Positions 2,037 to 54,957 are shown, numbered from the whole stretch's first letter. The stretch is DNA of 63,691 nt, filler included, from Neolecta irregularis DAH-3 (GCA_001929475.1; 11 parts of 11 records of this genome joined end to end with filler, not necessarily neighbours in it), one strand, 5' to 3'. Numbers and translations: made by a program. The notes: generated by a model not told the origin, from the letters alone.

Positions 2037-3280
2037 AAAAAAGGCAAAGAATGGCTTGTGGGAATACTAGTAATGCTGTTAAAACAGTCAGTTATAAACT
2101 GTCTCTCTAATGGACACAAGACATTATTTTATATATTTCCAGAACTGGGCTGTCGCATATGTTTTTCGATGCGACTTTTGAGAACTCCAACACCATCGTG
2201 CGGTTTCTGTCATTTGGGCTCTATTCAGTTTCAAGTTCTGTTATGTCTGCTTATGGATTCACTCTTCCGAGGAATTGAGTCTTGCGACGCGCTTTTCGAG
2301 TCATCTTTTCTCGATCTCAAGCATTATGACCATTAAGTCCCACCGCCCGGCTCAAACAGGGTCAGACATAGAGGACGCCACAAGCTGTGGGCGCCCTCCC
2401 AGTCCAAGACTCTGGACCCGCGGGTGGAAAATGTTCCACACGGACCAGTCAGAAGTGGCGCGCAGGGACAGACAGGTATTTAGGCTTAACACTGTATATC
2501 AATACCAACGGTTATTACTACTAATAACCCATATACGACTTTAAGGCTCAGCGGAGTATAGACCAGACCGGTCAAGTACTCACAACCATGCTCTCAATGT
2601 CATACTAGTTAAATTCACCTTAGCCACTACACTTTAATCAGGAGCTATAGCCTACATGTATCATATCACAGTGCAAGGATACAGGACCAGGTTCCATGCA
2701 GCAACATTACCTAAGCTTTTATTATTCAGTCTCAGATGATTTCGGGGATCATGTCTAAAATATTCTTACCAATACGAGATGTGGCTTGGTGGTATATCAT
2801 TACGGTCTTAATGATGGAGCAAATAAAGAAGGGTAAAAATTCATACCTAACCAAGTTCACGTCTTTAGGTTAGACAATAAAACTTTGTCCTATTTGTACA
2901 TCAAGCGTACAACCTACAGGAAGTCTCTATACTGCCATGCTCCTCAATGTCATACTTGTTGAATTAAAAGAGCTATAACCAGCGTGTATCATATCACGTT
3001 ATACTAACGAGGTTCAGAGGATTGGAGTAATGAGATTCAAAAGGAGAGAATTCCGGCTCTCGAGAATATTCTAAGAATAGCGGACGGATATTATCAAGGC
3101 TTCGGAGATTTCCAGTCTTTGTGTGCTCTGAACATATCAAAAACCTTCAAACAGTGAGTGATGCAGAATGATATTCACATGGTTGAAAGATAACGTTGTT
3201 TAATGGTGGTACAGGGTAGAAGAAATGTTGTTTAATGATAGAATGCAATTCATGCATAAATAAAACAGCACGTAAAACCT

Positions 3281-5158
3281 TTATATGCTAGCCTTCCCTC
3301 TGCTTTCGTAAGGTAAAAATCCCATCAAAATACCAGCAACAAGAAACAAACTCGCACTGACAAAAAGTGGGGTGTTACTTTCGATATTTGTGAAACTAGC
3401 TACGAGAGGTGCAATCATTCCACATATTCGATTGAAGGATGAGGCTAGACCCGTGCCCGTTCCACGATGAGGTGCTGGAAAAACCTCTGGTGTATACGCA
3501 CTAGAAATGGTGAGATGATTGTAGCAAGGGAGCACTTACTACAATACACCGTACATGACGTTTTGTGTTACGGCAGTAGCGCAACTAAATCCCAGAATTG
3601 CCTGTGAGGTTTTTGCATAGGTAAAGAGGAAAAGGAATATTCCTGTAAGAATGGTAGATAATGCCATTACTCCTTTTCGTCCTATTCGTGTATTCACGAG
3701 GTATGAGGCAATAACAGATCCGGGCACTCCGCAAGCTGAGATGATAGCAAAGTTCCGATATGTCTCGTAAATGGAACTAGCTCCTATCTGAGATCCATGA
3801 TTGCTAGAGCAAAGTTATATCAGATCCATAGCAGACACGAACCGCAAATAAATTGGCAAAAATGCGTTGTAAAGAGGATATGCCAATCCGATGAGTCCCC
3901 AAAGCTTAAAACAGTCAATGAGAAAGAAAGAATAGGCGCATTTACAAGAATGATCAATGACGTCGAAAATCCCAATTTCCTTGTCGAATAAAGAGCCTTT
4001 ATATGCTTTGAGTGGAATGTTTCTCTTAAGTTCTTCACTGCAGCAGAAGCGTATATTCTGTGACCATCGTCATTGATTGCCAGCTCCTCGTCGATCTGCT
4101 GGAAATCCTTGAGTACGAGTTTTGACTCCATGTTGTTTTTTGTTGCAACCTCGTTAATAACGTCCATCGCATCCGCATCGCGGCCTTGAGATAATAGCCA
4201 TTTCGGTGATTCCCATAGGTGGAAGATAACATAACGGCAAATGAACATGGAAAGAGTAAGACCACCTATAGTTTAGCAAGTTATAGAAGCATGCACATAC
4301 CCAGCACAAAGTACATATATCTCCATCCAATGTTCTTAATACGTGTACAGTCAATCGCTGATTCGCAAGTATACTTTCCAACTAAAGGCCATGCCACTAG
4401 AGACGCTACAAGCTGTCCAAGACACCACCAAGCGGACAGAGCCGTCAACAAGTTCTGATTGGAACTAGGGATGAATTCGAGGAAAAGAGTTCCATCGACC
4501 GGGAGGTTTCCTCCGATACCAATGCCAACACAAGCGAGCAAAGCTGAAAACCCGACAAAATTGGGAGCACCTCCAATTGCAATGCAAAAGATACCGCCGA
4601 TTGCCAAAGTTGCGTTGAAAGCCAATTTGCGACTATAAAGCCAGATCAACTGAGAACTGTCTTTTGAATACCCAATGATATCTGCGCCAATACCCCATCC
4701 AGTTGCGCCAATCGTCAGACCCACATATAACGAAAGTGTAGCCATAGTAATGTGCTTTGGCGAAAACTCGAGTTCAATACTATTGCATTAAAAAGAGATT
4801 CTGATTAGAAAAGAATACGGAGGCAAACTTATCGCGACAGCTTGAATTATCATATTATCCACAAACCAACCTAAGAGATCAACATCAGATCAGGGAAATA
4901 TTTTATACCAAATCCAGTGAGAATAAAGAGAAACTTTTGATATCGACCAAATCCTAGTCTCTCGAGTTCATTGTTTAGGAGACCAACTTTCCGAGCATAC
5001 GCTTCACCTATACTACCTACGAGAAAATTCTCGGTGCCACTAGCATCCTCTCTTGGATTAATCTGGAGAGCTCTCCCTGATTTGGAGGTAAAAGCAATAT
5101 TGGCGGTAAAAGCTCGATATGGGCTACCTGTGTTTACAATGTTCTCGGATAAGATCAT
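3281..5158 (-). CDS. MFS transporter (SV2-like/sugar-drug family), multi-exon; start uncertain
   Basis: Spliced motifs GFGRYQ, GWFVDNM, ADIIGRKLAFN, GGNLPVDG, ESPKWL and YAYTPEVFPAPHRGTG. Confidence 0.88.
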
Positions 5159-5828: not shown

Positions 5829-5928
5829 NNNNNNNNNNNNNNNNNNNNNNNNNNNNNNNNNNNNNNNNNNNNTTAATTAATTAANNNNNNNNNNNNNNNN
5901 NNNNNNNNNNNNNNNNNNNNNNNNNNNN
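5829..5928. other. Assembly gap with artificial TTAATTAATTAA linker (recurs near 18.7k, 24.4k, 37.6k, 38.7k, 44.0k, 45.4k, 55.4k, 56.8k and 61.7k)
   Basis: The same N-run / six-frame-stop linker / N-run pattern appears at every large gap. Confidence 0.95.
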
Positions 5929-18710: not shown

Positions 18711-18844
18711 NNNNNNNNNNNNNNNNNNNNNNNNNNNNNNNNNNNNNNNNNNNNTTAATTAATTAANNNNNNNNNNNNNNNNNNNNNNNNNNNNNNNNNN
18801 NNNNNNNNNNCTTTACCACCTGGCCTCTACTGCCATCTGGAGCC

Positions 18845-24411: not shown

Positions 24412-24595
24412 NNNNNNNNNNNNNNNNNNNNNNNNNNNNNNNNNNNNNNNNNNNNTTAATTAATTAANNNNNNNNNNNNNNNNNNNNNNNNNNNNNNNNN
24501 NNNNNNNNNNNTCAGCCATTTGCGCTTTTCAGATTGTAGAATATTACTTAAGGGCAAGGAGCCCGCCCTAAATCTTTGTCAATTTATCGCGAACC

Positions 24596-25077
24596 ATGTT
24601 GTCGATCTTTTTGTTCATCGCCTTGTGTGGAAAGCTTTCCTTTGCAGGGTACTATCTTGACAAATTTGATGATCAGAGCCCCTTGGGACTATCGATCCAT
24701 ATGAATCCCCAACTCTTGCACCCGTCTCATATTATCGGTTTCGAAACCCGTGACCAGGTGAGCCAACTCGAAATCTGTGCTGAACACTGCTTCAAAGACA
24801 GTTGGTGTGGTTCTTGCCTTTGGGCAAGTCAACGGGATCCCGGCAACAACTACTACAACTACTTTTGCTACCTATTTGATAGAGAATCGGTTGTGGACGT
24901 TACGCCAGTGAACGCGCCAGTGGACGATTGGCCGGATTTCTTCGGCAGGTACTTCACGAAAATTAGGGTTAGTTGGGACTTAAAAGTCATCTGATGTTTT
25001 AGGTGGAAAGGAAATTCAGCAAGACTCTTTCAGATAAGACTCTTTCAGATATTGATGTCATTACTCAAAGGATGTAA
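24596..25077 (+). CDS. Small secreted PAN/Apple-like cysteine protein; probable intron at 24968-25002
   Basis: Signal peptide MLSIFLFIALCGKLSFAG and CAEHC-x5-CGS...CYLF spacing. A GTTAGT...CTGAT...TAG intron follows the domain. Confidence 0.65.
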
Positions 25078-25742
25078 TTCAACAATAATATTGTAATTCA
25101 ATTATTGTCAATTTTGAGTATTGCCTATTTCCTGTCGCCCATACAACAAACATATACTCCATGGTGGCCAGCTAACCCCTCCAGACACCCGCTCACTACT
25201 GGGATCTCCAGCTTCTGCTGCCATTCCGCCCCCTCGACGCTGCCCTCCGGCCTGCCTATCGCACAAGCGGCCCACCGACCTGCAGCCGGGTATCTACCAG
25301 CAGAGCTCTGGCGACACAAAATGGACATGCCACCCCTCTGGACAGCACCGACAGCCCTACCTCTGGACTGGACAACCCTCTTGCACAAGGCAGAGTCATC
25401 ATCAGCCCCACTGTCCCCAATATGATCCACACCTACGCCTGCCTGCTCTGGTTGCCATGCGGCAGGCGCATCTTCATCCTCATCCACATACACCACCTGC
25501 ATCTCACTTACTTGCCATAATATTACTGCAATCGGATTTCAAGCCTATAAAATAGATAAATGGCTATACCTAGCCTAAGTCAAGTTCACTTATGCTGGTT
25601 TTCGGTAAACCTAGTCTTATCCTTACTCGGGCTTCAATACTTACAGGACATGGGAAAATCCCTTTCAAGGTATAGCTTCCCTGGCAGAAGATGTCCATTT
25701 ATTTCCTATTCCATAAGAACTATATCAACTCTCAAACATACT

Positions 25743-26623
25743 TTATAACCCACGAACAAAGACAACGGTATGGAAATTCTTAACCTCTGAATTTTCAAAC
25801 AGCTCGCTAGTCTTTAACACTTCGCCGCTCTCGACGTGCCATAGACTCAATTTCAACCAATCAGCTCGAGTATTAGAGCAAAATTATACCTGGTCTAAAT
25901 TAATTGTATTATTGACGTTCCGTAATCCCATCCTACCAGTTAGCTGAAGCCTGAGAAGATGTCCACATACATTGTAGCTAACCGATCTAAAACCTTTCCA
26001 TTACTCCAATCTTTTGATACGAAAACCTCCATTTTGGAGTTTCTTGACTTTTCGCCAGGAGGAGCTTCGATCCAAAACCAAACTCTCTTTTCCTGAGGAA
26101 CTTTATCGTCGCCTTTTGCCAGTCTTTTCATTTCTACGATATTATGTTTTGGACCGGGCCTTTTGAGCAAAGCCTGCTTCCTCTCTTCTCCCCACTTCTT
26201 AATTCGTAATAACGCTGATCGTTGTGATTTCTGGAAGGGCGTCTCTGGTGCGCCTGAACAATTATGATCGATTGCATGCCGATCCTTGAGACAATAAATA
26301 TTTCTGCAAATGCATATTGTTCCTGGCGAAGTAGTATCGTTTAGTTCTGTTAAACATTTTGCGCATTTGCCGGTCGCCTTTGAGTTTACTGGCCATTTAT
26401 CTGATATCGGCGATGGGGAATTCTTTTTGGCAAGAAATTTACAAGAGTGTATTTCTGCTTTCCAGTGTTCGTTGCAGAACTTGAGGTTGCAGAATTCGCA
26501 TCTGAATGGGAGAAAATCTAGTATCCTGATTAGTTGTTGCAAAGTCACTGTAAATAAACCAAGCTGTCGACATTCGGCACAGCGGTCCCCTATTTCTTCA
26601 AATTCGCCGACTTGTTGTTCCAT
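25743..26623 (-). CDS. AN1-type zinc-finger protein with C-terminal ubiquitin-like domain (Cuz1/ZFAND1-like), 4 exons
   Basis: IGDRCAECRQLDFLPFRCEFCNLKFCNEH, a second AN1 finger YCLKDRHAIDHNC, KRLAKGDDKVP, GKVLD, NVNN...KLSLWHVESGE...TVVFVRG. Confidence 0.82.
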
Positions 26624-26812
26624 ATGACCTTGATATTTTTGGTTTAAAGATTTACAAGGAATTTGGGCAATTGCGGTTGAAAATGCGGATTTGGCAAATA
26701 AGACGTAAGCGACGGTTCGGAGAACAACAAAGTACTTTCTTTGAAGCATATAAAAAGAAACAACCATCCAAAAATATGATATGAGAAATAACGCCAGATT
26801 TCCACATATTTT

Positions 26813-27748
26813 CTAAGAATCTGCTTTAATGACAGCATTTGACCGATTAATCATTGCCATTCGATGGACCTGCTCCTTTTTCTGAAACACAGAACTTTTG
26901 CCCTCCATAACCTCTAGGACCTCTTGTGCAAATCGAATGCTGAAATTGGTATGGCCCCGTTTATCACATGCGCCACACATCCAGAGCAATGCTTGTCGGT
27001 GACGCTGTCGCTCTTTGAGCGGGACAGGCACCGCAACCTTCTTGGAGCCTTTTGATTGTTGGACAATCTTTACCAACGGAGAGGCAGATTCGACTGCTTG
27101 ACGAAGTGTCTCGACGGGATCGACATGGACTTTCCCGCGCAGGTATTCGAGAATATCTTGAACTAATTTCTGGGCTTTGGATTTTTTCCCTTCTCGCATG
27201 ATTAAATTAACAAAATATGCACACAGAGGATCTGTTCTGACGGGTATATTGATAGACTTGGGATCGACACATAGCTCTTCGGGGTCGGGATTCCCCTGTA
27301 AATCGAACTGGATTCTCTTGAGCCCGTCAGGTCCCTCTAGTCCCATTATTGCTTCTGGAGTATCCTCCAACGCAGTGTTGCCTTGTTCGGATATTTTCTG
27401 GACTGCAATGGAGTCTTCTGGGACTTGGTCGATGGGCGATGGGTTTTCAGGGTCTTCCTTGTCGCTATGCAGAATATTATCGGATGCTGTAGCCTGTTCG
27501 AATATTTTCTGGACTGCAATGGAGTCTTCTTGGACGATGGGCGATGGTTTTTCAGGGCATTCCTTGTCGTTATGCAGAATATTATCGGATGCTGTAGCCT
27601 TTTCTGTGACATTCCCAATGTTTTTGTTGGTGACAATTTTTTTCGTCTGGGGAGGGCGTTTTGCGCGGGAGGATGCAAACCGCAGAAGCAAGCGGTTCTG
27701 CACTGGGAATCGACCCAAAAGTGGCCGCAGGGGAGAAAGAACGAACAT
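26813..27748 (-). CDS. RSM7: Mitochondrial ribosomal protein S7 (uS7m)
   Basis: Arg-rich presequence, FVNLIMREGKKSKAQK, VPVPLKERQRHRQALLW and KKEQVHRMAMINRSN. Confidence 0.88.
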   Translation of the reverse strand: MFVLSPLRPLLGRFPVQNRLLLRFASSRAKRPPQTKKIVTNKNIGNVTEKATASDNILHNDKECPEKPSPIVQEDSIAVQKIFEQATASDNILHSDKEDPENPSPIDQVPEDSIAVQKISEQGNTALEDTPEAIMGLEGPDGLKRIQFDLQGNPDPEELCVDPKSINIPVRTDPLCAYFVNLIMREGKKSKAQKLVQDILEYLRGKVHVDPVETLRQAVESASPLVKIVQQSKGSKKVAVPVPLKERQRHRQALLWMCGACDKRGHTNFSIRFAQEVLEVMEGKSSVFQKKEQVHRMAMINRSNAVIKADS

Positions 27749-27984
27749 TCAAGGCACCGAGTAATGAGAGGTCGGAGATTCCAAAGTTGCTTCGAACGCC
27801 CGTTTGCCATATAACCTCCAGAGAATTCGGCTATCGCCCTCTGGTATCAGCGTTTGAGATATCACAGCGTGTCGCTAACCGCCGGGACCTGCCCTAATCC
27901 GAGTACGGAATCCCGCTATCGCCAACTTCGGGCCAGCTAGCTTACGGTCAAAGGTCATCGTCAAACTTCATTTGCTCCAACGCG

Positions 27985-29730
27985 ATGAATCCAAACAGAG
28001 GAATCCATCCTATGCAGTCGCCCTCTTCAAGAGGAAACATCGGCCGCCCTCCAAGCAGTATGCCCGTCTTCTGCAGCTCAATGCCAGGTACTAAGAGCAT
28101 TTTCTAGACAATGCCAACTCGTGGACATTCAGCAACCCTGGCGCGCTTGCTGCTCCTCCTCTAAGTCAAGGCGTTCCCTTGCAGAGCCGGTTAACCCAGA
28201 ATCATTTGTCAAGTACAGCTCAGTTTTTCCAGCAGTCCCCAAACCCACCCCCGGGAATGCAGTCGCAAGGACCATTTGACCAAAATGATTTCCCAGCCTT
28301 GGGAGCTTCAGGGCCAAACAACCAGAATCGAGACCCAAACTCGAACCAGAGTTATGCAGGGATTTCTAGTGTGCAGCAGCAGCAACAGCAGCAACAGCAG
28401 CAAAATTCGTTTCTCCATCTTTCCCCAAATCGTGCACGATCACCTCCCGGTATCGGAGACGGTCAATATGCTTCTTTGAATGCGTCTTTAAATATTACTG
28501 AAAATGATTTCCCAGCTTTGGCATCTCAGTCTGGAAATATGGGCGGCCGACAAACTCCCCATCATCTGCAGCAGCATCAGATACAGCATCATCAAACAAA
28601 TGGTTATCCACTGCCTCTTTCGCCAAATGAAAATGGTCCCAATTCAATGTCGTCGAATTTTGCTCGAGTAAATGGCCAAGAGGAATTGTCACAGCACCAG
28701 AATTCGCTGTTAGGCTCGTTCAGGAATGGCAATCCGCCGCCTCAGCAGTATGATAATCCGAACCACAGCAATGATCCTTTCAGTATGTTTTCATAGGTCG
28801 TCCCCTACTCATTCTCTAGGAAAAGCCAACGACATTGGTGCTCGGCATTCTTCGGCTATGAACAATCTTATCAATGATTTTTCACGGCAAAATATTAATC
28901 ATCAGGGACCTTTGGAACAGGATAGAAAGGTACGTTTTGAATTTCCTGCTAATCCTTATTTTTTTAAGCTATCGTCTGAATCTCCCAACGTTGCGCTCGG
29001 CACAATAGACGGAAGAATGGTGAATATTCCCAATAGTCCGCCACCTTGCAATGATTCCATGACAGAGACGGAAAAATTCGGGCTGAAAGGGATTCTAGGT
29101 GTGATTAAACAGGATAATCCAGAAAGCATGCTTCTTCCACTGGGGAAGGATTTACATCAATACGGCCTTCCTATTCCTGGAAAGTAAGCAATCCCAGTTC
29201 TTGATGCGGATGCTTAGAATTAAAGTGATCGCCCGCTTTGGTCGACATTCTTTTCCCCATGGGGAGAGCCCACAAGAGCTATGGACGAACCATCATTTTC
29301 ATTACCAGGATGCTATAACGTCTCAGTGCCGCCTCCAATGATACCGAAAGTGGCATCATTCGGCGATGATACATTATTCTACATGTTCTACACGTTTCCC
29401 AGAGATGTTTGCCAGGAACTAGCTGCCCAGGAACTGTATACTTTTCATGGCATATACACTGATGTGCAGTTCCAATCGCGGATGGCGATTCCATAAAGAC
29501 CATCGGGTGTGGTTAACAAAAGACGTTGCAAGTGATCCATACATGAAAAACAATCATTATGAGCGTGGACATTATGTGTTTTTCAATCCAGAGACATGGG
29601 AACGACAGAAGCTGGTATGAGACCTGTGATTTATAGTTACCGACTTGTACAGAAGGACTTTGCATTGGTATACGCTGACCTGGAAAATAGGGCTTTTAAT
29701 CCTCTGTTGGGTTTGCCTGCAATACAGTGA
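27985..29730 (+). CDS. NOT2: CCR4-NOT subunit Not2 with a Q/N-rich N-terminus, 7 exons
   Basis: DFPAL repeats, EKFGLKG, LGKDL, F.LPGCYNV, FGDDTLFYMFYTFPRDVCQELAAQEL.NRGWRFHK and ERGHYVFFNPETWER. Confidence 0.88.
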
Positions 29731-29910
29731 TTGTGACCACTTTATTTGTACTTTGCGAGTATTTTCCAAGGGATGAATGTAGATGTACTTTTTTTCTTTT
29801 GGGCGGGACAAATACATCTTCAGGTCTTGAAAATTTCCAGACTTTCCTCAGTAGCCGGAAGTTGTTATTCCTATTGCTACCCAATGCCGGAGAATATCCA
29901 GTGATTTAAC

Positions 29911-30860
29911 ATGTCGTCCGACATTTCACCTGTAAAGAGACTGGGAATCGACGTCTTTTCGGCGATTTGTGCGGGAAGTCTGGTGCGTTGATTTAATTCA
30001 GGTTTGTTGACGATATAAAAGGTAGCCCCTTTCGTCGCTATGGTAGATCGGCATGAATTTTTCTCTTAACGGAAGATGCTTACGTGTTTTAGGAGTATAA
30101 TAGAAAATGCGAGTGGAAAAAAAAGAATATTTCAGTCTTTGAAACATTCGATTTTAACGATGATTACGAAACCTACTCATTTCTTTTTCTCTCCTGCATA
30201 CAGACTTGTCTTTGTATGTGTACTACGACTAGGTAGATACTAAGATCTGTTAGATGGTGTATTCGTGTACTTATTTTAGTGCAAATTTGGTCGACACAAC
30301 AAGCAATATCGTCTCGAAAAATCCGGATTTAAAACACCAGAGCAACGGAGTCGAAAAGTTTCTCGCCACGTCGAGGTATTTGAATATTGTTCCATCAAAC
30401 ATACTAAGGATACAAGCACCAATATGATACTCGGGGTCTACAAGGATTGTCGTCTAACCAGATGTTTTGGGCAAGGTGTTCCCCGTCGTTTGCCTCTTCC
30501 ATCTTACGCTCTCTTTGTCGCTCGAGACGCACTAACAATTGCTGCGTCATTCAATCTTCCACCACTCCTAGCAACTTATTTCCCCGGAGGTGTAAACACG
30601 GCCCAGCTTGTTTCTCCTTGCGCACTACAGTTTGTTAGCACCCCATTGCATTTATTGGGCCTTGATTTATATAATCGAGAAAAAAAGAACTGGAGAGATC
30701 GATTTGAACAAATTAGAAGAGAATATTTGAGAAGTTCGTTGGCACGCATTGGAAGGATTTTACCGGCGTTTGGTGCATGAAATTGAAGTCTAAATACTGA
30801 TACGCTTTAGGGTTTGGTGGCATCACTAACAGGCATCTCCGTAATTGGTGTTTAGAGTGA
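29911..30860 (+). CDS. Conserved fungal membrane protein, probably mitochondrial (resembles S. pombe C365.16-type proteins), 6 exons
   Basis: LVAPFVAMVDRSIIENASG, YALFVARDALTIAASFNLPP, QFVSTPLHLLGLDLYNR and ARIGRILPAFGFGG. Confidence 0.75.
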
Positions 30861-31359
30861 TATGCACCTTGTTACATTATAACGGGGGAGTTTGATAATC
30901 AAGTTGCTTTCGTTCAATCTCTTTTTGATTATGTTGATTTGTAATAGATCTTTTTAGGTTATTTTCTAATTCATGTTATCCGCGTATGATGTCACGATGG
31001 TTGACGGGATTAACAATTTTATGCAGTGAACTGAAATATGTAATAGCCCACAATTCACACTTATGTGCTCTGTACTCGCTTGGTCTTGTTATACAAGTCC
31101 GGGGTTTTTGATGACGAGCGGGAGTTGTTTCACTTTGGGATTTGAAAACCGGCGATCCAAGGAATAGTCTCAGCGAGACTCTGCTTGAATGGTGCCAGGA
31201 TTTAACAATTGGGGTTTCTAGAATATACTGGCCACGGATGTCAAAATCTGTAAGTAGTGTTCTATTTGAGACATCTTCGGAGACGTCATTAGTCCACTTT
31301 CACTCTGGACTCGAACCTGTCCGCTAACCATCATCCATACATATTATTCTTTAGCTGCC

Positions 31360-31856
31360 ATGGCCAGGATCCGCTCCACCGCCGGGAACTTTGAAGATAT
31401 CCGCTCGGAAATCAGCAACTCAGCTTCGATTAAGGGTCTTACCGCAGCCGAAAGGAAAGCCGCTGCAACATCATCAGCGAAGAACCTGGTTGCCCCAGAT
31501 ATCCCAGCTGTAATCTTCGTCCTACCGCCGTTCTAACTTGTTCCAGTTCGATGTTATATCGCTGCCTCCCGTGTCTATTCGCAAATACAGAGCGGCATAT
31601 AAACTTCCCGGTTCGTCAACAACTCCCTCTTCATCCGCCTCTTCATTGAATGGAATCCAGAAACGCTCGAGTGTAGGGATGCGTGCTTGTGCGGGCAATG
31701 CCCTTCAGAAACATTTCGACTCAATGCATATTCCTAAAGAGCATGAAATCGCTGCACGGTTTTTATATCGCGTGAAAACTCAAGGTCACCTACTTCATTA
31801 CATTGCTCGGCTAATGGCTAGATCGAGAACTCAGAGTTCGTTTTGGCCCGTCATGA
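31360..31856 (+). CDS. SAP30 Sin3-binding-domain protein, 3 exons
   Basis: SLPPVSIRKYRAAYKL and LQKHFDSMHIPKEHEIAARFLYRVKTQDRELRVRF. Confidence 0.72.
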
Positions 31857-32109
31857 TCTTTCCCTTCAATGGTAACACGAAAGCGGTCTTTTTTTCATTA
31901 GAGGATACGGGCGTTATTCTCTTTTTGGGAACATTTATCTATACACGGCTATTTAATTTTCAATGGAGGTTCTCTTTTGTTGTGTTACGAGATAGGCTAA
32001 GTTAATTTGGAGAAGATTTGTGATGGGGGACTCGGATTTAAGTTTCTCAGTCCTAATTGAATTGTATGAGAGTGAATATCAATATCAAAACTCCAAGACT
32101 ACTTCATCT

Positions 32110-33891
32110 CTATACTCCGCTACCGCTGGCCTTTTCCAATATTTCATCGTCGTTATCAGAGTGCCTTAACTTCCTAAAGGCGCGTTTTAGGAATCCGCTG
32201 CCGCAGTCCCCATCCTCACGCGCAGTTGAATCAGGCGGGCTATATGTTCTACTTGTAAGTCCAGTCAACTCGAGAAAACGTACGGTGATGATCGCTTTGC
32301 GTTCTTATCGCCAATGGAATCGGCGAGTTGCTCCAACAGCAATTGCTCATAGGGAGACCATGATCTTGGGGATATTAGCATTCGATTTCCATAAAAGAGC
32401 GCACTTTGGAAATTGAATTTGGAACTCAACTTTCATATCCCCTGGATTCTGCAGTCGGGACTTTTGAAGTTTTGGAATTCCTTTCCCAGGCAGGATCAGG
32501 GTATCTCCAGGTGACACTCCTTGGGGCACCTTCACGTCGACTTCTCCCTCTAATGTTGGTATGGAAATCTGACCTCCAAGTGCGGCTGTGGTCATCGGCA
32601 CTTTGGCCGTATATAGAATATTGAAGCCTTTCCGCTTGAAGAATGGGTGCTCTTGCACACGAATATGAACATATAGATCGCCTTTTTGCCTTCGCTGGGA
32701 TCCTCTATCGGAGGGTGGAGTGTCTCCTTCTCCAGTAACTCTGAGTTTCATTCCATCCTCGACACCTGTATTATTAGAAATGGCTCCCAACAGTATATAC
32801 TACCAGCGGGAATATCAATAGTCACCGTCTTTGACTCTCTTAGGATACCCTCTCCTCCACAACTACTGCACTCCGAACTTTTAGGAATAGAAATTCCAGA
32901 ACCATCGCAAGATTCACATTTCGAAGCCATTTGGAAACCGCCTTGCATGATATGAACACGATGGCCACTCCCACCGCATCGTTTGCACGACGCTCTTTTA
33001 GCGCCTGATTTAAGGCCTGACCCCGAACAAGTTTTACAAGTGGTCAAGGGTTTGATATGAACCGATCTCTTGACCCCTTTGGCGGCATCTATGAAGGAGA
33101 TAGAGATGGGGGCCTACAATTAGTGTATGTCAGAGAATATATCATACATCAATATCCTCTCCAACCATGGTTTGTTGCCCGAATCCACCGAACGACGAAC
33201 TCTGCCCATGCCCATTCGCAAATCCAAACAAGTCGCCAAGATCAATATTCGTAAAGCCCGGGAATCCAGTAAATGATCCAGATTCTCCTTGAGCACCTGC
33301 GCCCCCAAAACCTTGATCAAACGCCACTGAACCCAGTTGATCGTATTGCGTTCTCTTTTGAGGATCTGATAGAATCTAAGATATGACTTCTAGACTAGAA
33401 AAACGACCGGGTATATTACCTCATAAGCGTGTTGTACTTCTTGAAACTTTTCTCGGGCGTTGGATTCTTTGTTGGAATCGGGGTGATATTTCTTCGCTAA
33501 CTAGATCATTAATTTTCTAATATCATTGGTCAAAGTCGTACCGAATAATAAGCAATTTTGATATCTTTGGCGTCTGCGTCTTTGGAGACCCCAAGGACTG
33601 TATACGGATTCTTTGCGCGTTCATTTTGGCTAGCACAAGCATGAAATTTTGATTTCAGAATAGTTAGTATCTCTTTTGTATTTCAAGAAAGCGTACATGA
33701 TGTGATATCCTGGGTCTAACCATCGGCCTAACCCCCACATTAAGATAAAACGTGGCGGACGTTGTGGGATTTCTCGTCGATGTGTTGAATCTACGGTGAT
33801 GCAGATTCAAATTCTTCTCAGCATCGTAAAGGCAGCGGATCGGATTATGACGGTATTTCATCAATGGTTCAAATGCTCTGGCACTGGCCAT
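32110..33891 (-). CDS. MDJ1: Mitochondrial type I DnaJ chaperone, multi-exon
   Basis: [18 protein letters not shown] region, CxxCxGxG repeats, [20 protein letters not shown] and [13 protein letters not shown]. Confidence 0.9.
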
Positions 33892-34068
33892 GTGCGAAAC
33901 CTATGTTATATTCAAGGGCTGCTGAGTGATTGTATGTTGTGGAATCAGGTGGAAGAAAATGCGATATTTTTCAGGAAGTCTCGAATGATGAACTCTGAAT
34001 GTGGTAAGAGGGCTGATTAATCCCAAGCCGCGTCTCGTTGGTAGCCTGTCTCAACCTCCATCGCAGTT

Positions 34069-34707
34069 ATGAGTGAAGGAGCTATTCTGCTTCTCGTCAT
34101 CCTAGCGCTTTTCGTCGGGTATTCTTATTTTGGCAGCGGGAACAGCTCTACAGCTTCTGGAAATGCTTCGCACGGGTCTTTGAGAGGATCCCGGAGGGTG
34201 ACGAAAGATATGATTGAGGTGTGTTTTTGAAGGCACTGTAGATGACGCATATCAGGTAGTCCAGTCTATGTTTCCTACCATCTCGGAACGGTCCATCGCT
34301 TATGATCTGAGCAAGACTGGGTCTGTAGAAGCCACGACTGAGAAACTATTGACAAGTAACACATTGCCGGTATGTCATGACCTCTGTAGCATCTAATTTT
34401 CCAGGAACCTCCAGCGACCTATGTATATATGTTTGCTCCGTCGCAACCAGTCCAGCAGCCTTCAGGGAGAGCATCATCAGCACAAAAGGGACACTCCTAC
34501 CCCGACTTGATTACGAGGTTTCATTTGAACGACAAGGTTAAATCCGGTCTTTATACAAAGCCGGAACCCTTGGGGATTCAATGGAGTGATTCAAAGGCGG
34601 AAAGAGAAGCAATGTTTAAACGAAAACGCGAGCAATTTATCTTACAAGGCCTGAAAAATCAGAAATCGTTTGAGAAGACAAAACTTTCTGCGGCATCACA
34701 TGAATAG
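34069..34707 (+). CDS. Membrane-anchored CUE protein (Cue1/Cue4-like), 3 exons
   Basis: N-terminal TM helix, MIEVVQSMFPTISERSIAYDLSKTGSVEATTEKLL, DLITRFHL and WSDSKAERE. Confidence 0.8.
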
Positions 34708-34817
34708 AGATGACACCTGGTACGGCGTTTACTATGATGTTTCTTCAATTTATCATTGTAGGTAGGAGAAAATAGAAATTATCAACATATTAAACTGTAA
34801 TATCACTTCAAGGATTA

Positions 34818-37566
34818 TTACTGCATAACAACGCTGGTCCCGTCCATAAACCTGGTTCGGTATATTCGATTTGCGTTTGAGAACATGCCTTCTTTCAAGC
34901 TTACAACGATAAACTGGGAGCTGCGGCAATTAGTTGTTTTAAGTGAACCCATAGGCTTACCCTTTAAATCTAGTCTTAATCAAGCGTCCGATATTTTGGG
35001 TATGACTTAAATCTAACGCAGCGTCAACTTCATCAAGAATGTACATTGGTGCTGGCTTGAACTGCAAGAGCGACATAATTAATGCTAATGCGATCAGAGA
35101 CCTGTTATTAGCATGCTATTTCATTAGAAAGTAGCATACCGTTGACCTCCACTCAGTTCAGTCAAACTTTGTTTCCAAACTTTCCCAAGACATACTCTGA
35201 CTTCCAGTCCATCTGAGATATTCTTCCCTTCGGGCGCCTCTAATTTTGCAAAATTTCCAGGTAATAATTCTGCAAATATTTGTCCAAAATCACCATTAAC
35301 TTTCTCCCAAGTCCGTTGCAAGGCTTCTTTTTTATATTCATCGAGCGTAGATATTGTCTCCTCGATTTTCCGTTTATCGCGTCGGACAGTTTTAAGCATT
35401 GTCTTCAAGCTGGATTCTTTCTTTTCGACGCTGTCGATCATGTTCATTACTTTTGCATTAACTTTCTTCTGCAAGCCTTTGAAACGTTCTGTCAATGATT
35501 TTAAGTTATTTTTACATTCAGAAATGTTTTGATTCGCAAAATAATACGGCGTCCCTTGTCGACCAAAGTTGCTATTCCGTAAGACTTGAATACTATTTAA
35601 TTTCGGGAACTTACCTCTTCTCATCACCGATCCACTCGTGCTCGCGTTCCATTTGGACTAATAGACTCTCCACGCCTTGAAGTTCTTTATGGAATTTCTC
35701 GACCTCATGGCGAAGTTTCTGTAACTCTAATCCACTCTCCGTGATTTCAGAATTCTTCTGCCGTGAGGCTTCTTCAAGACTCTTCAACTCATCGTCAAAA
35801 CTGATCATTTTAGCTCGCTCGCTTTCCATTTCAGCGTTGATGAAATCATATTGGTCCTTGATCTTTGAATGGTCTTTATGTAGTGACTGGAGCTCTGATT
35901 GTTGGATTTGTAGTGTACTATTTGCGTCGTCGAGTTGTTCTTGAGCCGCTCCAAGGTCGGCTCCTAATTGTTCTGCATCATGAGTTAGATATCACCAGAA
36001 ATCAATGATACCAGCTTCCAGTTGTATTGTCTGGAATTCTCTCTTGCAATCTTTAACATTTGTACTTTGTTTCAAGATTGAAGCCTTGAGATCATCAAGT
36101 TCTTTCTGGAAATGTTAGAAATTTGTCGATTGCGCAACACACCTGGAGTTCCTTTAGTTTTCCATCCTTATTGTTCTTGAACTCGTTCATGTCCTTCTCA
36201 ATCTTTCTGACATCTTTTGAAGCGTCATCTCCTTTATTCTTTGCTTCAATCATTACCAGTTTCAATTCCCCAATCCGTTTTTTCATGTCTTCAACTTCAT
36301 GAATCAACTAGACCAGTGAGCATTCTCATCGCGATCTACATGCCTTTGAATGCGAATTACTGTTGATCTGTTCCTCGGTAAGCCTTAACTCGTGTCTCTT
36401 CAAGTCCAATTGTTTTTTCAGCGTTTTGGCTTCCGTATTCTTCTCTTGATCCATGTTCATCTGCCGCTCGATAGCATCAAACTCCCTCTTATAAATATTT
36501 ATTTCACGGGTGACTTTGTTTAATTTTTGAAGATGAACTAATAGTCCAGAAGTGCTGACACTGCTGCCACCACTTAACGTACCCGAAGGGTCATAAACAT
36601 CCCCTTCCAGCGTGACACTTTTCAATCGGACAGATGGATTGAATGTTACAGTTTTGGCGGTATCGGCGTCTGCACAAATTAATGTCGAACCAAAGACATA
36701 TTCCATTGCGGCGGAGACTTCACTGTCATATCCTACAAGAGATAACGCAAGGTCGACTTTTCCAGGGGCGAGTTGGTGAGCTGAATCGATTTTCTTTCAT
36801 AGTCAGCATTTTAAGAAGCAATAGGTACCTCTGCTGAAGCGCGAAAGGCGGAAATCCGGTTGAGTGGAATGATAGTTACTCGTTTCCTAAGTTTTCCTTT
36901 CTCAAGGAGTTGAGTTCCTATCACTTCGTTTTCGACGACAACCTATAGTTTTAGTTTTGCTATGAGAAAAATTGCACATTATACAATCTACCACCTGCAC
37001 ATATTTCAAGAGCAGTAGCAGCTTTGAACTTTTCCTGATCCAAAGAGAATAACTGAGCAACGAGACCTTTGACTTTACTCCGATCGAAGTTTGGCGTTGG
37101 ATCCGAATACACAAAGTCAATATTTGCCGCTTTGCGACTAAGATTATCCGCATTCTAACCAATTAACCAAATTTTGATGGAAAAATGGTGCCTCATGCAG
37201 TTCATTGATCATTGCTTGTAATTCGGCTTTCCTAGAAAGATTCGCCTGTTCAGTATCTTCGTTCCAATCAAGATTCTGTAATTCATTTTCCAACCTTGTA
37301 CCCTCAATTCTATGGCTTTCTAATTCTTTCAGCGCGGACATATTCTGATCACGGGCTTTTTTGGCTCGTGGTTCATCGGTTTTAATCTGTTTTTCTAGAT
37401 GCGAGATCTTCAATTTCGCTTGTTCCGATTCCGTTTGGGCATTGGAGATTCGTGTTTTGGCATCTTGCAATTGATCCATGTAGCCAGCATCGTGTCCTTC
37501 CTTTGCAGCCACTCCAGTAATTAGAGTTTGCAATAACTCTTCTTTCGACGATACTTGCTGTTGTTG
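34818..37566 (-). CDS. SMC2: Condensin subunit Smc2/Cut14; 5' part lies in the gap
   Basis: Hinge [63 protein letters not shown] and [12 protein letters not shown]. Confidence 0.95.
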
Positions 37567-37666
37567 NNNNNNNNNNNNNNNNNNNNNNNNNNNNNNNNNN
37601 NNNNNNNNNNTTAATTAATTAANNNNNNNNNNNNNNNNNNNNNNNNNNNNNNNNNNNNNNNNNNNN

Positions 37667-38639
37667 GCATGTCTTTATTGAGTTAAGAAACTGGATGATA
37701 GAGCATGGAGTACTAAAGCAGCAGAAGAGTATAAGCATTGATGAGCAACTTGGGATCTTCTTGATGATTGTTGGCCATGCAGATTCCAATCAAGATGTGC
37801 AGGAGAGATTCCAGTGTAGTGGATCAACTGTTTCGAAATATTTCCTTGAGGTTCTCAATGGCCTTTCCCAGCTATATCTCGAAGTTGTCAATCTACCTAA
37901 TCCCTCTATCATGCCACCAGAGATTCACAGCAATCCAAAATTTTATCCATATTTTCAAAACTGCATTGGGGCTGCAGATGGAACTCATATCCTGGCAAAG
38001 GTGCCTTCAAATGATTTTATAAGTTGTTTCTGCAATTGAAATGACACGCTTTCTCAAAATGTCCTTGGCATTTGCCAGTTTAATTTGCAGTTCTGTTATA
38101 TCTTAGCAGGCTGGGAAGGTTCTGCTCATGATGGGAGAGTTTTGCAATATGCACTCTCTCAAGATGGCAGATTGGTTGTTCCAGATGGCAAATATTATCT
38201 GGTTGATGCAGGTTATGCTATGAAGAAAGGATTCCTTCCTCCCTATAGGGGTATACGATACCATCTACGGGAGCAGATTTTGGCTGCTCAACGACCAAAC
38301 ACCAAAGAAGAGTTATTTAACTTACGACATTCACAACTTCGAAATGCAGTTGAAAGAATTTTTGGTATACTCAAGAAACGGTTTTCTATTCTCAAGATCC
38401 AAATGGAGTATCCATTCCATGTTCAAGCACAAATTGTTCAAGCTTTGGCAGCCTTGCACAATTTTATTACTATACATTCAGTTGATGATGAACTTGAAGA
38501 TTGGGAGGAGGCACATACTCAGGATATGGGAAATGTTGTTCCAATGAATAATAGCACTGAGGATGATCCACAAATGGCTAGGCTTAGGGACGAAATTGCA
38601 TTACAAATGTGGGAGGATTATCAAAGATATACACAATAA
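37667..38639 (+). mobile_element. PIF/Harbinger (DDE_Tnp_4/HARBI1-like) transposase remnant with a premature stop at 38037-38039
   Basis: CIGAADGTHI, SQNVL, LAGWEGSAHDGRVL, YYLVDAGY, FNLRHSQLRNAVERIFGILKKRF and ALHNFI; intronless and flanked by gaps. Confidence 0.92.
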
Positions 38640-49976: not shown

Positions 49977-52900
49977 TTATAGCTCCGACATCTCTATCTC
50001 TTTGGCTTTTTCTAACATGACTGACATTGCAATCCAACCAAGACTTTTGCCAATTCTGTCCTGACTACCTTCATCGACAACCGAAATATAATAGCAGAGC
50101 TGCTCGGGCAAATATATCTTTAGGGCTCTCCAAATGGCCACAGATCTGCAGCCGAATATCGTAAGCCAAATGGTGATATTGTTCGCGAAGAGTTTGTATG
50201 AGATCGTACGATCGTCGCCCACGAGTAGTTGACGAGGCCGAGAGAATACACCCCATAACAACTTCTTCTTCGGTTAGATTGGCTCTTGAAGGGGAGTAAT
50301 CTGTCTGGAATATTTTCAGTTCTTTAACGTACGATCTGTAGATGTCTTCGGCTAACGAACGGTGCTCTCTCCAGCGTTTCTGCGATTGATTGAAAATCCA
50401 CAAATTCAATTTATTCGACCTCAAACGATCAGGCAAGTGCGTTAGATATTTTCCCTCGTAGTCCTTGGTTTGTTGACGGACATTCATACTTCGGAACAAC
50501 ATCCCCAAAGCTTTTTTGCTTTCATAATATACACCACGCTCGCGTTTCGGCCGATGTTGGCTTTCTAGTAAATCTACTGCCCATTCAGGGCGCCTGAAAT
50601 CTGGTCGAGCCGCATCTGTTGCCCGTGGTGCATTACGCATGTTGACCTTGATACCTGTTTTAGGAAAATCAACGGCGGTAGAATGCATCTCAGCCAATGA
50701 AATACATGCGGCTGCCTTTACGCCTTCAGGATCACGGTCGGCTATGTTTTGATGAAGAGAAGCAATTAGACCAAGATTGTCATTCATTATGAAATCAATG
50801 AAAAAGTCAATAATGTCTTTCGCTATGCAGGGTCTATCGAGTTCAAGGGGTTTTGGAGCATGATAGCTTGCCGGAGGAAATATTCGAGGGGGGAGCAAAG
50901 TTTGATCCCAGATCACATTGTAATCATCACCGTCTAAGTCGCCTATACAATTAGCTTTACATCAACTAACATTTACCTCCACCGAGCATGCTAGGCAAAG
51001 GACGATAGCCTTTCTGGCTGAAGACTATGCAGTGATTTAAAGCTCGCAAAGGTGATGACTGATCGACATCGACTGCTTGGGAAAATTGGACGTCACCAGG
51101 ATGCATTGCAGGAGATCTCGACACAATAATCTGTCCAAGGATTTTTACTTTCCGCTGTGTTTGTGAATCTGTGAAAGCCACGTAAACCTCGTCTTCGAGC
51201 AATGTATCAGTCTCATCTAGTATACCTTTCAATAAAGCTGCTCTTGGTACAGGAATTCGGCTTCGATATTTGATTTCTTTGAGCATAAATCGCAGCCCGG
51301 TAGTATTGCAGGAACGGAGAAATTCAGACTCCGCGAGCACATCATAATCAGGGAAGCGCTTTGACAAAAGCTTCATAGTCGTACCCATCCGGATGGCTTG
51401 CCCAAGACCATACAAATTATAAAGACCTTCAATGCGCCGAATATCACTCGATCTTTCTTCAATCAATTTTATCGCTTGATTTTGGAGGTCTAAAAAATGT
51501 TTTATGGGAACCCCGAGGGTTTCAAGAATCGTGATTAGTGGGCGATTGAGGAACATTTGTAGGCTTCTTGTCGCAGCAGATGCAATTTCTAGTATATTGG
51601 CCAAAGGTGCTTCGAATTTGCGCATCGAAGGCCGAAGGCACAACTGACGCCCGAGCAACGATGTATCGAGAGCCACGACACCTTTGGCACCACCAAAGCG
51701 AATCTGAAGTACTGTTGTCTGAGAATCCATATCAAGGGTTTGCAAGACATCTTTGAGAAGCTCTGAAGATATCTTTCCAACTCCATCACTGAAACAGTAG
51801 CCGTTTCGCTCAACATCAGGAATTTTATTGATTTCATGGGGTAACAGTTTGACTGATGCAAGTGTGGTTGTGAAGGCTTGCGCCATTCTTGCCGCATATC
51901 TATGAACACATCAGCTGTTTCTGCATAAAACCGGAAAACCTTGGAGGACAACGGATGCGACTCAGATCACCAATCGAACTGCGGATACCCTCGGGATCAA
52001 TTCGCTGGCCCTTATATTCGAACGGTGTCATAAACCAAACTGTATGTTCTCTCAACGAGCTTTGAGAGTAAGCAAGGTAGCGATATTCCCGTCCAGCCAC
52101 ACTTATGAATGAATGAGCGAGTATTTTCTTGAATCTCTGTTGTAGAATATCGTCGAGAGAAACTTCCGGATTGAAGTGCAATCTCTCAAAATGCTCGTCG
52201 GCAAACGTAACTCTCAAGAAATGGTCGTGATGATTCGGATACAATCGCATTATCCGGTTTCCTTGGTCTACTTCTGGACCCTCGAGGTAAATTCCACTGG
52301 GTGTGCATACAGCTTGATGAACCCAAATGTGGTTTTCTGCCGGAATATCCAAGCGCGATGTTTCTGCCGCAGTAACTGGACTATCAATGACGTCCAGGAT
52401 TGTTTTGCAAAACTCATATTCAGACGGATAAGAGTTTAAAGGAGATCTGATTGCGAGATCTGAAAGTGATCGAAGCCTCGATGCCAGGATACGATCTTTC
52501 AGGCGGCTTGCATATATATTATGTCGAATTTCGTTCATCTCGGAGGGAAGCAAATATGTACTCGAGACTAACCTATGACATTGATGTGCTACAGTAATTG
52601 GTAAAGATCGATAGAAGATGTCCAATTTAGATAAAGTCTCCCTTCCATATTCCCGCTTACTGATCGAGTGAACATTGAAGCAATTTTTGGTATCCCAAAA
52701 TTGTGCCAGTATATGTGACTCGAGGAATTCGAAGCAATAAACATAACAAAAAGCTGCAACGGTACCATGATCTTCATTTATACAGGGCTTACGAGTATCG
52801 GATGGTCTGTAGTCTACGACGCTGTGAAGCAATTCGTTTCTGCCTGCGTTAAGGAACTGTGGCGTCACAGAGTTCTCGATATAAAGCTTATTGTTCGCTT

Positions 52901-53483
52901 TATCTTTAATGAGATGGTTGACTTGGGACTTCTGAATTACGATCTTCATGTTGATGTGGTTAGAAGTATCTATGGGTTCCTCTATGGAACAAACGAAGCG
53001 CCGCCCTTCTGATTCCCAAACAATCTCGATTGCGGAAGATTTCCATTGCTCAAGATATACACCAGTTGAAGACCATACGCCACAGCTGACAGTTCGAAGA
53101 GCTGCAGTTCTCAATGACTTTTCGTTCTCTGGCTCATCGTCAACCAAGGTCTCGTCCTGAAGTTCTGTATGCGCCTTCAGCAAAGCTTCCATTTCGAATT
53201 TCGTAAAATTTCGGACATTTTGAACTAAATTCAGATTCTGTTGTAGACATGTGATCGAGTTTCCTTGAGATATAAAGTCGAGAATCTTTATGCCAATTGG
53301 AGGCGTTGGAACTGTCAACAAACCTTTACCTTTACCTTTACCTTTACCTTTACTTCCAGCAAAAACAACAGCTGTAAAGAATGGCAACTGAGTTGGCCAG
53401 ACCCTTCTTAGTGAGTCGGCGATGCTTTCTCGAAGTGTAGATTCGGTGACATTATAAGGTATACCTGAGATACGAAATTCCAT
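49977..53483 (-). CDS. Cellular RNA-dependent RNA polymerase (RNAi, Rdp1/SAD-1/QDE-1 superfamily), 3 exons; C-terminus possibly frameshifted
   Basis: FSDGVGKIS, QIRFGGAKG, LRPSMRKF, SRSPAMHPGD, GGDLDGDDY (split by the 50943-50976 intron) and HSTAVDFPKTG. Confidence 0.93.
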
Positions 53484-54957
53484 ATTTCCAAGGCGGATTT
53501 ACCAGAATGGAGTCAAGGAGAAAAGTACAGGGAATTGAGTTCAGGTTTGATAGAGGAGACCAATAAAAGGTTGATGATTCGCCAGAATATTACGTCAGTG
53601 GTCTACCCCACCTCGAAGATACACCTGAGACACAAAAAAGCGATGAGAATCTTATACTTCTGACTATATATGGTATGGCAAAAGCTTTTTCAATCTCGGG
53701 TTAGCAGGGGCGCGAGGGGGCTGGTGGGGGTGCAAGGTAGGCGGCAGACTGGGACGGGGGCAGCGGGTCTCCCTGCTTGAGATAGGCAGGGCTGCCAATG
53801 GCGGAATTGTGCAAGGTGGGGAACATGTGGAGCGGGGGCAGCTCGGGGGGCGAGGCGGGGAAGAAGCCCTTGATCAGGCTCTTCAGTAGTACTTTTTTGA
53901 GGAGGGACTTGGCGCGGGCGGGGGAAGAGTGGTTGGGGGCTATGTCTGCCGCGCGGTCGAGCGAGTAAAGGTCATCAAAGTCTGGGGGCTGTAAGAGGCG
54001 CTGTGCATAGCGAACTCCGACCAGGCGTAGAAGAATGGCTGCCAAGCCCCTCGTCGATGTTGACAGCGACTGGCGAACGGGGTGGTGACTGACGAGCAGA
54101 GCGGCGGCAACTGACGAGCGGAACGGTGACTGACGAGTAGGGCGATGGCAGCAATGGGAGATCAGGCAGGTTGGCCTGGTCACGGCGGGAGGCGGGTCGC
54201 ATGGCAGAGTGAGTGGGGTAGTGGAGTAGAGTAGCAGGGGTGGTTGATTAGAGTATCAGGAGTAGTGGACCTAAGTATCCTGAAATCAACCGACGAACTT
54301 GCTCAGCAGGCAATTCAATGTCATCACTAACTAAATGTGACATAGTTATGTGGGAGGAACGGCTGGCAGCTGTACTGTTGGTGGGGCGGTGGTGGTGGTT
54401 GGCATTTAATCAGGTATCACGTGAAATGCCCGTCTGGGCCGGGCTTTTAATGGGCTAGCCCGGTCCCCAACACTAACTGGATCTCATTATTTGGTAACGA
54501 TATCCTCTTTATATACAACTTGAGATTTAACTTATTCCATTCCTTCGTTCACACCCTTCCTATCCACTGGTACCGTACATATCTTATCTAACTTTTAATT
54601 CATAATAACAAGCAACAATGTGGGGACCACCGAGCCCCACAGCCCCCACACGGCAGTCAAGGCTGGATTAGGCCTGTCAGCGGCGGAGGACGGGTGGCAC
54701 TCGCAGGACGGGTGGCATTCGCAGGATGGGTGGCACTCGCCCAATCCGGGAGAGGGGCTGGATGAGGAAAGCAACCCAGATCCGGAGGAGATAGTTTGGA
54801 CGGGTATATAGGTAGGAGAGGAGGCTTAATTTTGTATACCACGAGTTGTTATTGCCACATACGACTACTCAGCAAGCATATCAAATTAAGGCTCACCCGA
54901 GTAGCAGCAAGAGCTGGCTTAATCCTCATATAATCAATCATACATCAGCATAACAAA

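Follow-up and report, generated by a model that had tools for sequence, protein, structure and literature searches.

A probable GT-TG mini-intron in a ZFAND1/Cuz1-like gene of Neolecta irregularis

The window, by which we mean the whole stretch of 63,691 nucleotides of Neolecta irregularis DNA analysed here, contains spacers of a regular pattern (44 N, 12 letters, 44 N) at 5829-5928, 18711-18810, 24412-24511, 37567-37666 and in eight more places. It has the look of distinct contigs joined in a row, so that gene order carries no meaning beyond a spacer. Contigs from two public runs, X1 and X2, neither of which is recorded as RNA, were placed on the N-free stretch 24512-37566. The minus strand of this stretch carries, at 26623..25743, a predicted gene of the ZFAND1/Cuz1 type, with AN1 fingers and a ubiquitin-like domain; the family is represented by ZFAND1 in human and Cuz1 in yeast. 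ZFAND1/Cuz1 proteins have a role in the Cdc48/p97-proteasome system. Just downstream of the gene, 24512-25400 is a multi-copy repeat, where the word depth of the X1 DNA rises to 2331-3634 from about 380 around it (6-10x) and both runs show many variant letters, joints and loose ends. Elsewhere in the window, an ORF at 38040-38636 (plus strand) with a DDE_Tnp_4 transposase domain (PF13359, E 2.5e-20) represents a copy or a remnant of a Harbinger/PIF-like transposon. Three adjoining ORFs at 50074-53498 (minus strand) make up a large gene for an RNA-dependent RNA polymerase, with PF05183 and the fungal RdRP PH-like domain PF25358, which belongs to QDE-1-like RNA-silencing machinery.

The coding region of the ZFAND1-like gene (25743..26623, minus strand, as are all features of the gene below) comprises four exons with a CDS of 765 nt, and the 254-residue product carries two AN1 zinc fingers followed by a C-terminal ubiquitin-like domain of the ZFAND1 type. 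Exon 1 (26560..26623) begins with the ATG at 26623..26621. Intron 1 (26518..26559; 42 nt, GTTTAT...CTAAT...TAG) was assigned because its removal alone restores the C-x2-C...C-x2-C spacing of the AN1 finger, and a piece of one X2 contig, record 9, begins directly after it at 26517. Exon 2 (25971..26517; 547 nt) corresponds to positions 59-606 of this record, with 0 other letters. It is followed by intron 2 (25933..25970; 38 nt, GTATGT...CTAAC TGGTAG), the X2 piece ending at 25970, and by exon 3 (25890..25932; 43 nt), which encodes ...MGLRNVNNTINLDQ and fits record positions 607-648. Beyond the third intron, the subject of this report, exon 4 (25743..25853) encodes the second half of the ubiquitin-like domain up to the stop codon TAA at 25745..25743 and is covered by record positions 649-1366. 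The record extends 607 nt past the stop codon, into the 24512-25400 repeat.

Pfam matches were taken exon by exon, not on the spliced protein: the translation of exon 2 alone matches PF01428 (zf-AN1) in 2 stretches (E 1.1e-11, 45.1 bits, cut-off 27.9), and that of exon 4 alone matches positions 34-68/69 of PF25327 (UBL_ZFAND1; E 1.2e-5), its 25.8 bits falling just below the cut-off of 27 because it holds only half a domain. Of 47 candidates from a word-indexed protein library, 3 were homologues (34-37% identity), and an exhaustive protein library returned 261 proteins at E <= 0.001, the best of them 40-42% identical; the best named homologue is protein P0004 of Saitoella complicata (40% identity). 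The Neolecta protein has the family's domain order (PF01428, PF25327) and 34-42% identity to its fungal homologues, and nothing unusual was noticed in it. What is odd about the gene is confined to its third intron.

Intron 3 (25854..25889; 36 nt) lies between the end of exon 3, ...GAC CAG at 25890, and the start of exon 4, AAA TTG AGT CTA TGG CAC GTC GAG at 25853, and reads GTATAA ... CTAAT ... CTCGAG CTGAT TGGTTG. Its 5' splice site, GTATAA (25884..25889), has the GT start and agrees with a GTAnGn-like U2 consensus, except that position 5 is A, not G; the RNA-supported intron at 29436-29469 has the comparable donor GTATAC. Letters 4-6 of the donor form a TAA at 25886..25884, in frame with both flanking exons. 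The probable branch motif is CTGAT (25860..25864), an assignment that would make the A at 25861 (intron position 29) the branch nucleotide, at a distance of 7 nt from the intron end. The terminal AG required of a U2-type intron is absent, the letters being TTG both in the window and in contig 6 of the X1 DNA. Around the terminal TG (25854..25855), position -3 is T and position +1 is A. As a whole, the 3' end closely matches the one of intron 2 (CTGAT TGGTTG vs CTAAC TGGTAG). U12-type (minor) introns are marked by an invariable donor, RTATCCTT, and by a branch site resembling TCCTTAAC. We rejected this class for intron 3, since its donor GTATAATT and its branch motifs CTAAT and CTGAT match neither consensus. 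Cutting one base further left would give GG-TT boundaries and the same mRNA, and is less likely because both the GT donor and the terminal G would be destroyed.

The TG has three AGs around it, one 11 nt before it and two after it, at 8 and 24 nt. The upstream one belongs to a decoy (25865..25876) made up of CTAAT at 25876..25872, with its A at intron position 17, and an AG at 25866..25865 that ends at position 25; its use would remove 25 nt (1 mod 3) and break the frame. The next AG, 8 nt past the TG (25846..25847) and separated from the branch A by 15 nt, would define a 44-nt intron (2 mod 3), with a frameshift and an early stop. The third AG (25830..25831; positions 59-60) is in frame, at the cost of deleting KLSLWHVE. 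Furthermore, between the conserved NVNN and LSLWH the sole GT is that of the GTATAA donor and the sole AG after it breaks the frame, so that no canonical intron can join both conserved halves. Folding of 25900..25815 gave an MFE of -19.3 kcal/mol (z -0.30), with 68/200 shuffles as stable; a fold no better than shuffles offers no sign of structure that hides the AG at 44. A sequence-only reading had proposed a GT...TTG intron between these exons; its positions, letters and flanks were exact to the base, and its account of the in-frame TAA (frame 0) and of the AGs at positions 25, 44 and 60 holds in full.

Alignment to homologues supplies the reason for removing the segment. Exon 3 (...NVNN TINLDQ) and exon 4 (KLSLWHVE SG ... 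HTVVFVRGL) together match the NxNN, the variable-length loop, the [KR]L.[LIV][FW]H[VI]E motif and the C-terminal strands of the homologues. Specifically, KLSLWHVE aligns with RLRVFHVE, RLQLFHIE and KLRIFHVE in P0002, P0001 and P0003, respectively, which bears out the likeness to a RLRVFHVE-type fungal motif that the sequence-only reading had pointed out. Since both exons align with the same homologues, they must share a reading frame, and the intervening TAA must be removed.

Possible products were then compared on an in-house profile built from 133 homologues of 230-340 aa, taken from 153 proteins (P0001-P0153). Removal of the 36 nt up to the TG scored highest (215.0 bits), followed by in-frame removals of 39 nt (212.7 bits), 33 nt (212.1 bits) and 30 nt (211.0 bits), and residues 5-252 of the spliced protein were aligned through profile position 273/298 vs 233 for the truncated form. 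The isoforms with AG ends scored 192.9 bits (position 60), 187.7 bits (position 25) and 186.2 bits (position 44; 230 aa), and retention of the intron scored 186.4 bits. On this comparison of translated sequences, the protein demands an in-frame removal of about 36 nt and leaves the exact base unfixed, 36 differing from 33 or 39 nt by just 2-3 bits. A complete, conserved ubiquitin-like domain results from no junction other than the TG one.

Transcript evidence comes from X2. Every one of the 10 joints listed for this run skips 34-51 nt with GT..AG boundaries (CT..AC for minus-strand genes), and X1 contig 8 covers 27571-37566 gaplessly, running through the introns that X2 skips. This difference identifies X2 as spliced cDNA. 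Record 9 (1366 nt) places positions 59-606 on 26517..25970 and 649-1366 on 25853..25136, with 42 letters between, and its first 58 letters fit exon 1. Forty-two letters are expected: exon 3 has 43 nt, but the G that opens it is equivalent to the one that opens intron 2, and the alignment assigned this G to the preceding piece. The coordinates of the record therefore equal exons 2, 3 and 4 minus 25889..25854, and the transcript resumes at 25853, the base after TTG; this 25890|25853 junction is read from the record's coordinates, not from junction letters, and the 42 letters are assigned by length. None of the AGs at positions 25, 44 and 60 is used as a point of resumption in the record, and intron 3 is not retained in it. 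The in-frame non-AG ends at 30, 33 and 39 nt, which the profile allows, are incompatible with the same coordinates and were rejected.

Non-canonical 'introns' in cDNA are often artefacts, and we considered that reverse-transcriptase template switching or a chimeric or misplaced contig created the junction, the gene truly ending at the TAA as a truncated protein or pseudogene. That the junction is known from record coordinates and not from letters leaves some room for this account. Nevertheless, the two sides of the junction have just 1 nt (G) in common, too little for template switching, and removal keeps the frame and restores the profile match to 273/298 vs 233 on truncation. Exon 4 also has an open frame of 36 codons with a match to UBL_ZFAND1, and the boundaries coincide with a GT donor and with a branch motif at a normal distance. 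We regard an artefact as scarcely credible.

At the DNA level, X1 contig 6 (2106 nt, 25390-27495, word depth 376) agrees with the window with 0 other letters, confirming TTG. X1 may be the sample from which the window itself was assembled, so that this agreement excludes an assembly slip without adding an independent individual. The two runs carry different organism codes and the X2 RNA may come from a slightly different genotype, though it shows only about one to three differences from the window in the unique parts of 13 kb. One of the positions at which RNA and DNA differ is 34555 (plus strand), where X2 has A>G at full depth (192.2/192.2) and X1 has it in 0/383.8; the change would turn ACA (Thr) into GCA (Ala) in a plus-strand ORF and is either a difference of sample genotype or A-to-I editing.

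A second alternative follows from these samples, namely that the RNA donor has TAG at the end of intron 3. The T at 25855 in the DNA sample would then be either a read error or a private variant that damages the gene. The differing organism codes, the clean RNA-DNA difference at 34555 and the possible origin of the window from X1 are compatible with it, and TGGTTG is one letter away from a normal acceptor such as the TGGTAG of intron 2. Against it, a depth of 376 with no alternative letter makes a read or assembly error unlikely, and at roughly 1-3 X2 differences per 13 kb a change at exactly 25855 has an a priori chance of about 1 in 10,000. We therefore judge such a difference between donor and window very improbable. 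Overall, contig and profile data speak for the sequence-only reading: base 25855 is T on the minus strand in X1 (depth 376, 0 differences, in a run that is possibly the window's source), record 9 resumes at 25853 by arithmetic on its positions, with neither the position-60 AG nor retention in evidence, and the 133-homologue profile prefers the TG product at 215.0 bits. Removal through the TTG acceptor is thus supported from three sides, by transcript coordinates, protein profile and DNA contig.

Apart from its last two letters, intron 3 resembles the introns around it. Our reference set comprised 12 RNA-supported GT-AG introns of the window, namely the 10 X2 joints listed and introns 1 and 2 of the ZFAND1-like gene. 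These are 34-51 nt long. From the A of their 3'-most CTNAY-like motif it is 6-13 nt to the intron end, and the donor is never closer to it than 27 nt; one intron has two candidate branch motifs, 10 and 16 nt from its end. The 36-nt length of intron 3 and the 7-nt distance from its branch A to its end fall inside the local range, just as had been proposed from length and from the CTGAT + 6 nt spacing. The same 7-nt distance recurs in intron 2 (CTAAC TGGTAG) and in the intron at 29436-29469, which also uses CTGAT. In addition, the RNA-supported 38-nt intron at 35102-35139 (minus strand) contains an internal CTAAT followed by a TAG that ends at position 24 and is unused. This parallels the decoy of intron 3, with its AG at position 25, and suggests a lower length limit, with a minimum intron length near 30 nt. 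A window-wide scan for introns that join ORFs had little to add: in its loose form it returned 64 AG and 12 TG ends, TG not exceeding other non-AG ends (11-36), and in its strict form, with a codon-usage score, just 2 AG candidates passed, leaving it powerless.

The AG end of introns is among the most invariant signals of eukaryotic genes, and the main human survey concluded that TG acts only beside AG. In its 36 genes, TG 3' sites of U2-dependent introns are exclusively alternatives to an AG no further than 28 nt away, and they prefer pyrimidine at -3 and purine at +1 (Szafranski et al. 2007, Genome Biol 8:R154, PMC2374985). Intron 3 shares with those sites the GT donor, the terminal TG, the T at -3 and A at +1, AGs within 28 nt and a TG junction in a transcript. 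The likeness raises a third alternative, a TG-AG tandem in which the spliceosome, as proposed for human TG sites, commits to the intron via one of the flanking AGs, either the one 11 nt before the TG or the one 8 nt after it. TG would then be one of several 3' choices, and frameshifted AG mRNAs would be made but degraded. Both AGs lie within the 28-nt limit, and by the survey's account human TG is never the sole 3' site (PMC2374985). The AG at position 44 lies 15 nt from the branch A, further than the 6-13 nt seen in the local introns but within the 16 nt possible for the intron with two motifs. Moreover, contigs drop rare isoforms and X2 offers one contig at this locus, so that some use of the AG at 44 or 25 beside the TG is possible. 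That one contig, however, carries the TG junction, and as no AG alternative keeps the frame, TG would be the sole productive site even in a tandem; nothing here indicates that an AG is required. We consider dependence on a helper AG unlikely, while giving it more weight than either of the preceding alternatives. The same points bear on the earlier description of the TG as obligate and constitutive: it holds only in the sense that the TG form is the assembled one and the sole full-length one.

Taken together, the evidence makes it very probable that 25889..25854 is a genuine U2-type mini-intron with GT-TG ends, and that no other splice of this conserved gene is productive. It differs from the human sites of the survey in that those stand only beside a productive AG, whereas the Neolecta AGs give no frame-keeping product; furthermore, the intron is 36 nt long and its TG sits at the normal acceptor place, 7 nt from the branch motif (PMC2374985). 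GT-TG introns are also already accepted in fungi, a manually curated Ganoderma lingzhi annotation counting 22 of them, 0.024% of all introns (BMC Biol 2024, PMC11590231). There, as here, fungal GT-TG introns are taken as real and their neglect damages gene models. In contrast, G. lingzhi is a basidiomycete with introns of ordinary size, and the present case is a single intron, dissected base by base, from an ascomycete with mini-introns. Intron 3 is a rare but real exception of splicing, a further case of a kind already known. No printed description of TG acceptors in Neolecta was found in the literature searched, and the main text of the N. irregularis genome paper does not contain the words 'intron', 'splice', 'transcriptome' or 'RNA-seq' (PMC5309816). 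A metagenome scan with exon 2 gave 115 matched stretches, 3 of which encode relatives (49% identical over 37 residues each), with no close relative and no orthologous intron found among them.

A precedent for relaxed acceptor choice comes from Saccharomyces cerevisiae. Cells without Prp18 use branch-proximal non-YAG 'BG' sites, UG included, and Prp18/Slu7 are dispensable where the distance from branch to 3' splice site is short (Roy et al. 2023, NAR, PMC10711555). The parallel with intron 3 is that a G-ending non-AG site near the branch is used and that short distance relaxes the dependence on second-step factors. The yeast case, by contrast, is a loss of fidelity in a mutant, with mostly unproductive products, whereas the Neolecta site serves a wild organism and gives the functional mRNA.

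How a TG might be accepted can be proposed in outline. Intron 3 would be defined by its GTATAA donor and CTGAT branch motif, and the upstream CTAAT with its AG would be ignored, as its A is just 17 nt away from the donor and the resulting intron, at 25 nt, would be shorter than is workable here. At exon ligation the spliceosome would then dock nucleotides at a preferred 7-nt distance from the branch A. In cryo-EM work, as summarised in the cited paper, the last intron G pairs with the first G and the A at -2 pairs with the branch adenosine (PMC12707134), and a TG end thus keeps the first contact and loses the second. The terminal G would retain its pairing partner, the G that opens the intron, and U at -2, in place of the A that normally contacts the branch adenosine, would be tolerated. 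The AG 8 nt downstream would either not be reached or give a frameshifted, unstable mRNA that is lost. Distance from the branch, in this scheme, may do most of the 3' site selection in Neolecta mini-introns.

The intron also offers an explanation for a gap in the public record. Neither public protein library holds a model of the ZFAND1-like gene, nothing in them being more than 42% identical to its product. Other genes of the same contig are present, such as DnaJ P0275. An ORF of the window matches an N. irregularis DnaJ protein at 99% identity, and the best hit of a neighbouring cysteinyl-tRNA synthetase ORF is a Neolecta irregularis DAH-3 protein, 934/934 residues of which are covered by exact 8-residue words in the reading frames of the window. 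Evidently, the public N. irregularis proteome has no model of the ZFAND1-like gene. The non-AG intron is the likely reason, as gene finders restricted to AG cannot build such a model, and other N. irregularis genes may be missed by them in the same way. Separately, the mitochondrial DnaJ (Mdj1-like) gene contains a possible second GT-TG intron at 33656-33696 (minus strand; 41 nt, GTACGC ... TACTAAC ... CTG), in which 8 nt separate the branch A from the TG. Its removal would fuse an upstream ORF of 65 codons (33697-33891), which begins with ATG, in phase with the exon of the J domain. In the public model P0275, translation begins 14 codons ahead of this donor, and the intron is a 67-nt GT-AG one with a branch-to-AG distance of 34 nt, unusual for this genome.

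A wider reading, which we advance tentatively and hold to be somewhat less probable than its contrary, is that N. irregularis, with introns shrunk to about 31-51 nt, picks its 3' sites by a ruler of some 7-9 nt from the branch with a relaxed need for A at -2, so that UG would be the sole constitutive acceptor in many genes, in about 0.1-1% of introns, without a helper AG. What the locus itself presents is a conserved housekeeping gene in which TG is the only acceptor that gives a working protein. With its TG at the normal acceptor place, the 36-nt intron is a clean natural substrate for studying how position -2 is read, and with it the question of distance versus sequence. If the ruler reading is true, the share of UG acceptors would exceed that of other fungi several-fold to tens-fold, and AG-only gene finders would systematically lose or mistranslate the affected genes. 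Neolecta would then have a natural spliceosome with a 'low-fidelity second step', like that of the yeast prp18 deletion, fixed in a wild lineage.
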